NCBI GenBank assembly: GCA_018813375.1
Contig: JAHJBU010000003.1
Location: forward strand, 1-45,530
Length of the DNA stretch: 45,530 nt
Source: Patescibacteria group bacterium
Lineage (GTDB): Bacteria > Patescibacteriota > Microgenomatia > UBA1400 > PJMF01
Direction of reading: 5' to 3'
Under the pieces are notes generated by a model that saw nothing but the letters and a program-made list of their open reading frames with translations, did not search any database and was not told where the DNA came from. Made by a program: the position numbers and the translations under genes. How positions within the stretch are numbered: the stretch's first letter is position 1; every line of letters begins with the position of its first letter. Positions 2,398 to 42,733 of the stretch are shown one piece after another.

Positions 2398-2456
2398 TGA
2401 TGCAAATGCATCAATTTTGATGAGATTTCATCAAACTGAACTGTTCTTAATTTGGA
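2398..2456 (+). promoter_or_regulatory. Paired 16-bp palindromes (TGATG-N6-CATCA, twice, 20-bp phasing) followed by an 18-nt conserved box; candidate operator for an unknown DNA-binding protein
   Basis: TGATGcaaatgCATCA 2398-2413 and TGATGagatttCATCA 2418-2433, then AACTGTTCTTAATTTGGA 2439-2456. The same architecture recurs at 42317-42352 plus 42509-42526. Half-sites are conserved while the N6 spacers differ. Confidence 0.5.
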
Positions 2457-42176: not shown

Positions 42177-42316
42177 CGGGTAATTTCAATTAATAGCCTA
42201 ATTTTTTCCTTTCTGTAATCAAAACAGGATGTTGTTAGAATCCTGTCTGGTTTAGGCAAAATAAGGTAGGTAGTTTCTCGAATAATTTGTTTATCTTAGC
42301 GTGACACTTTTAATTT

Positions 42317-42352
42317 TGATGATTTTACATCAAATATGATGAGATTGCATCA
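42317..42352 (+). promoter_or_regulatory. Second copy of the paired palindromes TGATG-N6-CATCA x2 (20-bp phasing)
   Basis: TGATGattttaCATCA 42317-42332 and TGATGagattgCATCA 42337-42352. It has the same orientation and phasing as 2398-2433. The companion box AACTGTTCTGAATTTGGA lies at 42509-42526. Confidence 0.5.
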
Positions 42353-42393
42353 AAACTAACCAGAGTAATTTTGGTGTATATAATTTGTTGGCT

Positions 42394-42485
42394 GGTAAGA
42401 TAATTACTTGCCTGGTGTATCCACTTAAGATACACCTACTTCCTGCACCCTTGGTAAATATATCTAAAGGATATGTTTTTCAAGG
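42394..42485 (+). other. Block of three consecutive stable hairpins inside the long ileS upstream region; candidate structured leader RNA or small RNA
   Basis: H1: GGTAAG 42394-42399 / CTTGCC 42407-42412. H2: GGTGTATC 42414-42421 / GATACACC 42429-42436. H3: CCTTG 42449-42453 + AAATATATC 42456-42464 / GATATGTTT 42470-42478 + CAAGG 42481-42485. Confidence 0.45.
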
Positions 42486-42733
42486 ACCACTAAGTCAATG
42501 ATAATAAAAACTGTTCTGAATTTGGAACTAAGGTTAAAAAAATAAATCTATCGAAATTGAGAAAGTTAGGAAATAAATAGTTTCAAACTCAGAGTATTTA
42601 ACCCCTCCTAACAAATTACCCAAAATCTGTAGGTGGGTCAGAAATTTCCCAATTTGTTAAAAAATCGTCTTTCATTTACAATAACAGTTATCTAAAGTCG
42701 CTCTAGCCTGGCTATAGTCAAGTAAGTTTTTTT

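Follow-up and report, generated by a model that had tools for sequence, protein, structure and literature searches.

Paired palindromes in a Patescibacteria genome: a predicted promoter module with a double operator, copied among intergenic regions

We analyzed a 45,530-nucleotide stretch of DNA (the window; GenBank assembly GCA_018813375.1, contig JAHJBU010000003.1, positions 1 to 45,530 of the forward strand) from a bacterium of the candidate phyla radiation (CPR; Patescibacteria), in which a paired palindrome, TGATG-N6-CATCA twice in succession, occurs once in each of two long noncoding regions. This element, the doublet, belongs to a short repeat that is present about 20 times in the genome and that originates from the divergent promoter region of a single-copy gene on another contig, here called X. 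In related species, the doublet is conserved at the orthologous locus with half-sites that covary symmetrically, and the intergenic sites corresponding to the two window copies lack it. As the best explanation we propose, giving it about an even chance of being right, that the doublet is a predicted operator for a dimer-of-dimers protein, possibly the product of X, within a promoter module duplicated around the genome. What we infer in this proposal is that a protein binds, which protein that is, that the promoters are active, and how the copies were made.

Paired palindromes in the window

The window contains exactly four exact TGATG-N6-CATCA sites, compared with 0.05 expected, and none of 100 shuffled sequences reached four. 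The palindromes, which have no assigned strand, lie at positions 2398 to 2413 and 2418 to 2433 (copy A, spacers CAAATG and AGATTT) and at 42317 to 42332 and 42337 to 42352 (copy B, spacers ATTTTA and AGATTG). Both doublets have a 20-bp start-to-start phasing and the same orientation, and in all of these respects the exact search and the shuffles bore out a preliminary description made from the sequence of the window. Each doublet is 36 bp long, and its extended core, TTT-TGATG-N6-CATCA-N4-TGATG-N6-CATCA-AA, has outer TTT and AA(A) flanks that carry two-fold symmetry across the whole 42 bp.

Two further features had been described as common to both copies. The motif CACTTTT does precede both doublets, but its distance differs: in copy A (2392 to 2398) it overlaps the first T of TGATG, and in copy B (42305 to 42311) it lies 5 nt ahead. 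Likewise, an 18-nt box is identical at 17 of 18 positions in the two regions, but it lies 5 nt past the doublet in copy A (2439 to 2456) and 156 nt past it in copy B (42509 to 42526), where it forms the terminal part of another dispersed repeat.

Doublet families across the genome

The genome searched (G000) is a 1.13-Mb draft of 123 contigs with 36.8% G+C, of which the window is one whole contig (C2). Relatives of its FtsZ place the organism among CPR bacteria of the Pacebacteria/Microgenomates type. The genome holds 43 exact single sites, versus 1 for a reversed-pattern control; they make up 20 doublets, where the control has none, and incomplete copies at the ends of contigs. Every exact site except C71:2956 falls within a copy of a repeated doublet module. 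Isolated or degenerate sites that would point to a classical regulon were sought across the genome, and one-mismatch sites were found only at background (61 versus 45).

The modules are short (~110 bp), noncoding, all intergenic, and multicopy (15 + 3 + 3). Type A has 15 copies, all with the spacers CAAATG and AGATTT of copy A, ~110 bp of common flank, and one substitution in total; palindrome 1 is identical in every copy. Type B comprises copy B and copies on contigs C59 (C59:2683) and C72 (C72:22049), with flanks in common, the first spacer ATTTTA throughout, and the second AGATTG in the window and AGATTA in the others. A third group, A' (C72:1, C72:25383, and C12:20159), has the second spacer inverted and flanks of its own; C12:20159 ends at a contig end after its first palindrome, and the other two doublets are complete. 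A relaxed pattern revealed one more doublet, C104:62-97, built from TGTTA-N6-TAACA twice and likewise phased at 20 bp. The flanking ATTCCTACCT is similar to the locus in the related genome G004, and all four half-sites of this doublet have changed together.

Because the 15 type A copies have the same spacers and ~110 bp of common flank, the doublet travels inside a dispersed repeat. The preliminary description had held that homologous regions in relatives keeping their spacers as well as their half-sites would indicate a repeated selfish element, and the type A copies keep both within this genome: they show no substitution in 20 half-site columns and a single one in 16 spacer and linker columns. 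In subfamily A2, to which copy A belongs, the right arm is ~9% diverged from other copies and the central ~57 bp is unchanged; the three A' copies have flanks ~19% diverged by manual count and cores that differ by 0 to 1 base. Doublet cores within the genome are either selected or homogenized. Many copies stand at contig ends, as would be expected if repeats exceed the word length of the assembler, and two independent metagenome assemblies, Ga0180007 and Ga0180009, show the same junctions, including the context of copy A. Relatives have 0 to 4 doublets, and no doublet was found outside the genus by exact and relaxed pattern searches of 55 genomes of the family and order.

Several arrangements of these modules were observed in passing. 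The A' modules at C72:1-36 and C72:25383-25418 have opposite orientations and enclose 25 kb; each of them stands ~110 to 150 nt ahead of the start of a gene, which is that for an AAA ATPase in one case and cysS in the other. At C100:1682-3308, an abiEi-abiEii operon lies between two type A modules in direct orientation, and in the first of these, the arm that in the locus of origin is turned toward the surface-protein gene is directed into abiEi at a distance of 85 nt. The sequence TTCATTTCAC, which abuts palindrome 1, is invariant in all type A copies.

Origin at the divergent promoter region of gene X

X is a single-copy gene encoding 194 amino acids at C91:4620-4039, divergent, across a 212-bp intergenic region, from a gene for a ~690-amino-acid secreted surface protein with CarboxypepD_reg/Big-like domains. 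The type A copies match the region from -113 to -4 before the X start codon at 96 to 99% identity. Most of them stop 3 to 4 nt short of the ATG, and they start just past a -10-like TATAAAAT that faces the opposite way; from these boundaries, the copied unit would span the distance from one predicted -10 box to the other. A 1-nt insertion is common to the type A copies and missing at C91, so these copies descend from one copied progenitor and not each from C91. At C91 itself, palindrome 2 is directly upstream of the putative -35 of X, and the outer edge of palindrome 1 overlaps the putative -35 facing the other way. A second copy of the 5' end of the surface-protein gene and of the intergenic region up to the first palindrome, 92.5% identical, occurs at C89:1-347; it is a paralogue or else comes from a strain variant that was binned with this genome.

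Close relatives of X occur in seven other assemblies, and the doublet is kept at the orthologous locus in eight species, always between the same neighbors: the divergent surface-protein gene and, on the far side of X, a 345-amino-acid gene converging on it. X adjoins the doublet in seven of these species; in G004 it has been deleted, and the doublet persists between the flanking genes. The half-sites are TGATG/CATCA in both palindromes in G000, G004, and G005 and at loci L088 and L130, TGTTG/CAACA in both at L126 and L129, and TGATA/TATCA followed by TGATG/TATCA at L125. Spacers and flanks diverge across the eight species while the half-sites change symmetrically, and the 4-nt linker varies among members (TTTT, ATTT, AAAA, AATA, or CTTT). 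At L088, L125, and L126, palindrome 2 ends 2 to 3 nt ahead of TTGAAC or TTGACC, with a -10 box 17 nt on, in promoters predicted by consensus.

Covariation was assessed in an alignment of 11 sequences, made up of the orthologous sites and the other doublet copies from G000 and G004. Symmetry held in 110 of 110 cells, three pairs had changed on both sides, and none of 500 shuffles reached the covariation score. Such symmetric change fits recognition by a symmetric multimeric protein. Both palindromes of each doublet, moreover, carry the same half-site and change together, and this, like the two-fold symmetry of the 42 bp and the near-palindromic spacer of palindrome 2, favors a single protein reading both over a pair of hairpins independent of each other. 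The earlier argument that conserved half-sites with free spacers mark the site of a dimeric protein holds across eight species at the X locus and fails among the copies within the genome, which keep their spacers. Freedom of the spacers is itself only partial: they drift between species, but that of palindrome 1 stays A rich and that of palindrome 2 stays a near-palindromic RRATYY (AAATTT, AGATCT, and GGATTC, for example). For the element as a class, the idea of a protein-binding site is probably right.

Gene X and its wider family

X belongs to no Pfam or NCBIfam family, the only Pfam match being a subthreshold one to MarR. Profile searches placed it in a family of ~215-amino-acid CPR proteins with ACT_7/ACT_9 domains, often mislabeled as aspartokinase, with further members in Melainabacteria and more distant ones in DPANN archaea. 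The AlphaFold model, with a whole-protein predicted local distance difference test (pLDDT) score of 82, combines a four-helix N-terminal domain and an ACT fold. When the whole model was compared with the Protein Data Bank (PDB), the ACT part matched the regulatory domains of aspartokinases; the N-terminal domain modeled alone (pLDDT, 88) had no PDB match better than an E value of 2.3. This domain is basic, with a net charge of about +6.

Upstream of the wider family, a palindrome with the same 5-6-5 geometry as the doublet recurs. An exact TGTWA-N6-TWACA stands 45 to 10 nt before the start codon of the family gene itself in 20 of 32 bacterial loci, versus 2 matches in the 81 kb elsewhere in the same loci, and it overlaps a TGnTA that resembles an extended -10 as well as the probable start site. 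Many of the loci L135 to L166 have, 60 to 10 nt before the ACT-family gene, both this proximal palindrome and a distal TTGTAAAATTT...GTTACA pair; the latter lies ~40 nt further upstream and brings the number of half-sites to four, a multisite architecture conserved across CPR bacteria and Melainabacteria. A comparison of N-terminal-domain residues with half-site type (TGTAA versus TGTTA) was uninformative, having only 7 versus 5 sequences, several of them close relatives. Within the X clade, the substitutions M63T and V37A accompany the change from TGATG to TGTTG, as a single evolutionary event.

X is the most economical candidate for the reader of the doublet, on a circumstantial case made up of its place beside the doublet in seven species, its basic N-terminal domain, and the palindrome upstream of the wider family. 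A bolder conjecture, which we regard as possible but doubtful, is that the X family (~160 to 220 amino acids, with a conserved four-helix N-terminal domain and one or two ACT domains) is an unrecognized class of autoregulators that sense a ligand and recognize 5-N6-5 palindromes (TGTWA-N6-TWACA) by means of a novel DNA-binding fold and that in this genus the operator shifted to TGATG, was doubled, and was multiplied along with its promoter.

Proposed mechanism and alternative explanations

In the mechanism we propose, the doublet would be the operator core of a ~110-bp bidirectional promoter module whose original place is the divergent intergenic region between X and the surface-protein gene on C91. 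Its four identical half-sites, at one- and two-turn spacings, could seat a homodimer on each palindrome and thus a dimer of dimers, which might let a small ligand control both promoters. DNA-level duplication would then have spread the module to ~20 intergenic places along with other short repeats, some copies taking in part of X and others only the ~40-bp core. Copy A would be a dead partial copy, holding the promoter and a decapitated 5' end of X, and copy B an older, diverged copy in an insertion upstream of the real ileS promoter. Since their half-sites are intact, the copies probably still bind the protein and would then serve as decoys or stray regulated promoters.

A number of observations weigh against this proposal. 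G004, which lacks X, has four doublets with identical palindromes (linkers TTTT in two and CTTT in two), and three of the four have only the ~40-bp core in common with the others. Within a genome the whole core is the same from copy to copy, even in its spacers, but between genomes it differs, a pattern that would also fit a recombination or transposition site. Most type A copies face the 3' ends of genes, unlike promoters; a consensus promoter scan of the window calls no promoters in the modules; and in X only an ACT domain was identified, with no DNA-binding fold recognized.

Several of these points bear on a different explanation, which we consider unlikely but worth weighing, that the doublet is the site of a mobile-DNA enzyme (a transposase or site-specific recombinase), the copy before X being an old insertion and the mosaics products of recombination. 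Such a site would work in double-stranded form, its inverted arms flanking a crossover spacer of 6 bp (a length within the 6- to 8-bp range of dif/lox-type crossover regions), or as single-strand hairpins. The burst of ~20 copies against 0 to 4 in relatives, the many copies at contig ends, and the ~40-bp cores set between unrelated flanks (L050 and L052 in G004, and the A' and B modules) would all be explained, as would spacers that are uniform within each family and differ between genomes, the inverted second spacer of A', the mutually inverted pair 25 kb apart on C72, and the presence of a true MITE (miniature inverted-repeat transposable element), bounded by terminal inverted repeats (TIRs), 140 bp away. 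Against this, the position of the doublet beside the putative -35 of X has been kept in eight species whose DNA has otherwise diverged. A comparison of the junctions of the 15 type A copies revealed no target-site duplications, and terminal repetition was limited to a 9- to 10-bp AT-rich match coinciding with the two -10 boxes, so that the module does not qualify as a MITE. The A2 copies, which include a piece of the X coding sequence, look like plain segmental duplications and not like excisions with defined ends, and arms of 5 to 7 bp are short for a tyrosine-recombinase core (those of dif/lox are 11 to 13 bp). The REP/RAYT and IS200/IS605 systems were rejected, because the Y1 transposase family (PF01797) is absent from G000, G004, and G005, with positive controls.

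Palindromes may also act as RNA or single-strand DNA hairpins, and here they would be weak terminators, stabilizers, or processing stem-loops on a dispersed element of the REP/BOX kind, which we judge very improbable. The plus strand does fold better than shuffled sequences (z = -3.4 for copy A and -2.7 for copy B; the minus strand of copy B reaches -4.9), changes on both sides preserve pairing with one G-U pair at L125, and six type A copies lie downstream of a codirectional gene. A loose scan called palindrome 1 of copy A with its TTTT terminator-like; it is the only one to pass, and the stems, with 2 G-C pairs per 5-bp stem (2 in 5 to 7 over the longer stem), and the unconserved U tract do not make an intrinsic terminator. 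At the conserved locus, however, the palindromes are upstream of both putative promoters, and because the linker switches between TTTT and AAAA among species, neither strand keeps a constant terminator tail. Structure alone would require neither that both stems have the same sequence nor that they change together, and a near-palindromic spacer in palindrome 2 would be useless to a hairpin loop. Comparison of the doublet regions with the Rfam 15 covariance models gave nothing but one chance-level match (E = 0.5).

Finally, the doublet may be the operator of a regulator other than X, such as an AbiEi-type antitoxin or a small helix-turn-helix (HTH) protein common to G000, G004, and G005, an alternative we hold to be quite improbable. 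It would account for doublets in G004 without X and for the abiE genes close to some copies: AbiEi genes begin 45 to 85 nt from the copies C72:22049 and C100:1736, and more abiE genes lie near C37:696 and near the copy in L060 of G004. AbiEi operators are likewise tandem inverted repeats in a promoter, cooperatively bound and autoregulatory, but they consist of two 23-bp inverted repeats 3 bp apart, each bound by one monomer (PMC7319586), whereas the doublet has 16-bp palindromes with a 4-bp gap. AbiEi was rejected as the binder because of this difference in geometry; in addition, the conserved locus has no abiE genes, and abiE operons are so numerous in this genome that chance adjacency is likely. 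CRP/FNR and known operator motifs were also set aside: their geometry is similar, but no CRP-type HTH scored above the cutoff.

The copy A and copy B regions

Repeats in the window are confined to its two long intergenic regions, each a mosaic of several repeat families. Both copies sit in mosaics of ~600 bp that are absent from the same intergenic sites of relatives; they are secondary duplicates, not sites dedicated to controlling the genes beside them.

Copy A lies in a 638-bp mosaic (2044 to 2681, without strand; delimited by within-genome repeat comparison) between convergent genes that in four genomes of the same genus overlap or stand no more than ~225 nt apart. Its A2 module, at 2380 to 2493 on the plus strand (by blastn within the genome and pairwise alignment to the C91 master copy), is homologous to the C91 region from -99 to about -4 before the X start codon and is covered by 17 other copies. 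The 18-nt box and a -10-like TATAAAT (2457 to 2463), together spanning 2439 to 2463 on the plus strand, align with the master locus, where TATAAAT stands 15 nt ahead of the X ATG, and would be the core-promoter part of the copied X promoter, a function predicted from the alignment. Homology in A2 (copy A and the copies on C71 and C86) runs into X to about codon 20. In copy A this dead 5' fragment of X (about codons 1 to 20) occupies 2470 to 2521 on the plus strand, where ATTTGACTCGTATTATTACTC aligns with the HLTRIITR codons; three gaps delete 17 nt in total and remove the ATG. Copy A lacks a downstream gene because it is a decapitated partial duplicate of X. An unannotated gene or transcript, the latter being one of two possibilities drawn earlier from its position, is not needed to account for it.

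Two other elements share this mosaic. A 147-bp MITE-like repeat (2094 to 2240, without strand), distinct from the doublet module and present about eight times in the genome, has 22-bp TIRs (TAAAAAAAGATAATTAAACTCT and its complement) that are 95% complementary, with TA at both ends, and is a genuine MITE candidate. Between 2520 and 2565, two tandem 23-bp units (TTTTTATTTCCATTTCACCAGC followed by C or T) start exactly where homology to X stops.

Copy B belongs to a type B module at 42307 to 42384 on the plus strand, consisting of the doublet and a diverged type A promoter arm (the two arms were matched by hand alignment) and ending in a -10-like TATAAT at 42379 to 42384; its function as a promoter is predicted. 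Within the genome, blastn matches 42307 to 42428 with C72 and C59 at 92 to 98% identity. Immediately downstream, at 42385 to 42523 on the plus strand, follows an independent, hairpin-rich dispersed repeat of ~140 bp, R3, which is also found on C59 and, without the palindromes, on C89, C93, and C113, and which the type B doublets join directly past the -10-like box. R3 has no Rfam match and could be a small-RNA or leader module. Its copies carry the AAAACTGTTCTGAAT box themselves, so that the idea of copy B as a module split by an AAAACT-flanked insertion was not established; the intervening repeat brings its own copy of the box.

A simple operator for ileS, as the location of copy B had suggested, is not what it proves to be. 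It lies inside an inserted mosaic of ~550 bp, upstream of what a promoter scan identifies as the native ileS promoter (TTGTTA-17-TACAAT, 42654 to 42682, plus strand), which is conserved with relatives, tttcatttacaataaca being common to L002. The distance between ftsZ and ileS is 855 nt in the window and mostly 250 to 430 nt in relatives (1,045 nt at L003), which have no doublet there. Four close relatives (L001 to L004) have a T-box-type leader, GGTGGTACCGC to terminator, directly before ileS; that of L002 (3816 to 3952) matches the Rfam T-box model RF00230 over its full length with an E value of 3.5e-5, below the gathering score. In the stretch of the window compared with these leaders (42540 to 42733), Rfam finds no T-box ahead of ileS, where only ~50 nt of leader remains past the kept promoter, and T-box regulation of ileS appears to have been lost in this genome.

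Comparison with known systems

The ARG boxes of ArgR are two 18-bp palindromes ~21 bp apart, and TyrR boxes have the form TGTAAA-N6-TTTACA. Like these operators, the doublet consists of tandem palindromes about two turns apart beside a core promoter, with half-sites more conserved than an A/T-rich center, and the TGTWA-N6-TWACA of the wider family resembles the TyrR box. ArgR, TyrR, and candidate X alike have a ligand-binding domain of the ACT type or similar. In contrast to ArgR and TyrR, X has no recognized HTH or winged helix and no sequence relation to either, and it is a predicted binder only. By analogy, the doublet may work like the paired palindromic operators of such ligand-sensing multimers.

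As a dispersed sequence, the module finds its closest described counterpart in promoter reuse by putative mobile promoters (PMPs) and in dispersed repeats that bear promoters, among them Correia and ERIC elements. PMPs are promoter-region sequences >80% similar over >50 nt that stand before unrelated genes of one genome, with no associated transposase known and an unknown mode of movement (PMC3575422). The doublet module is similarly ≥80% identical over ≥50 nt before unrelated genes, copies of 96 to 99% identity lying before or near DUF3800, AbiEi, and Fic genes, for example, although the -150 to -50 frame of the PMP definition was not formally applied. Unlike PMPs, it has an identifiable source locus, and what was copied would be a whole bidirectional promoter with a conserved double operator; most of its copies are not before genes, and the window copies are outside the defining frame. 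Correia elements, ERIC, BIME/REP, and REPIN have been named as dispersed intergenic repeats with promoters or hairpins (PMC3575422). The module is like them short, multicopy, intergenic, palindromic, mosaic forming, and disruptive of short-read assemblies. It differs in lacking TIRs, target duplications, and a RAYT partner, in numbering ~20 copies and not hundreds, and in the conservation of its palindromes in sister species too, where they form part of a single-copy promoter.

Wider scans covered 185,579 species genomes, viral contigs, and Joint Genome Institute (JGI) metagenomes. The viral contigs gave no doublet matches, and the matches outside the genus, a heterogeneous set (an operator of MarR, a pair resembling a terminator that follows a LuxR-type gene, tandem arrays of 20 bp, and contigs of eukaryotic appearance), were judged unrelated. 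In the literature, we found no description of such repeats in CPR bacteria, or of the ACT-domain X family as regulators there.

Implications

For annotation, the two long noncoding regions of the window are best described as repeat mosaics, and copy B should not be taken for a control site of ileS. More broadly, gene regulation is almost uncharted in CPR bacteria, which cannot be grown alone, and the doublet provides a cis-acting element whose history can be followed, from a promoter that sister species conserve in single copy to its multiplication in one genome. It is a concrete case of the spread of a promoter and its predicted operator without a recognizable transposase. X and the doublet are a candidate regulator-operator pair, the family relative of which, TGTWA-N6-TWACA, spans several small-genome phyla. 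If the conjecture about the X family is true, one species would have gained a ready-made set of ~20 regulated or decoy sites.

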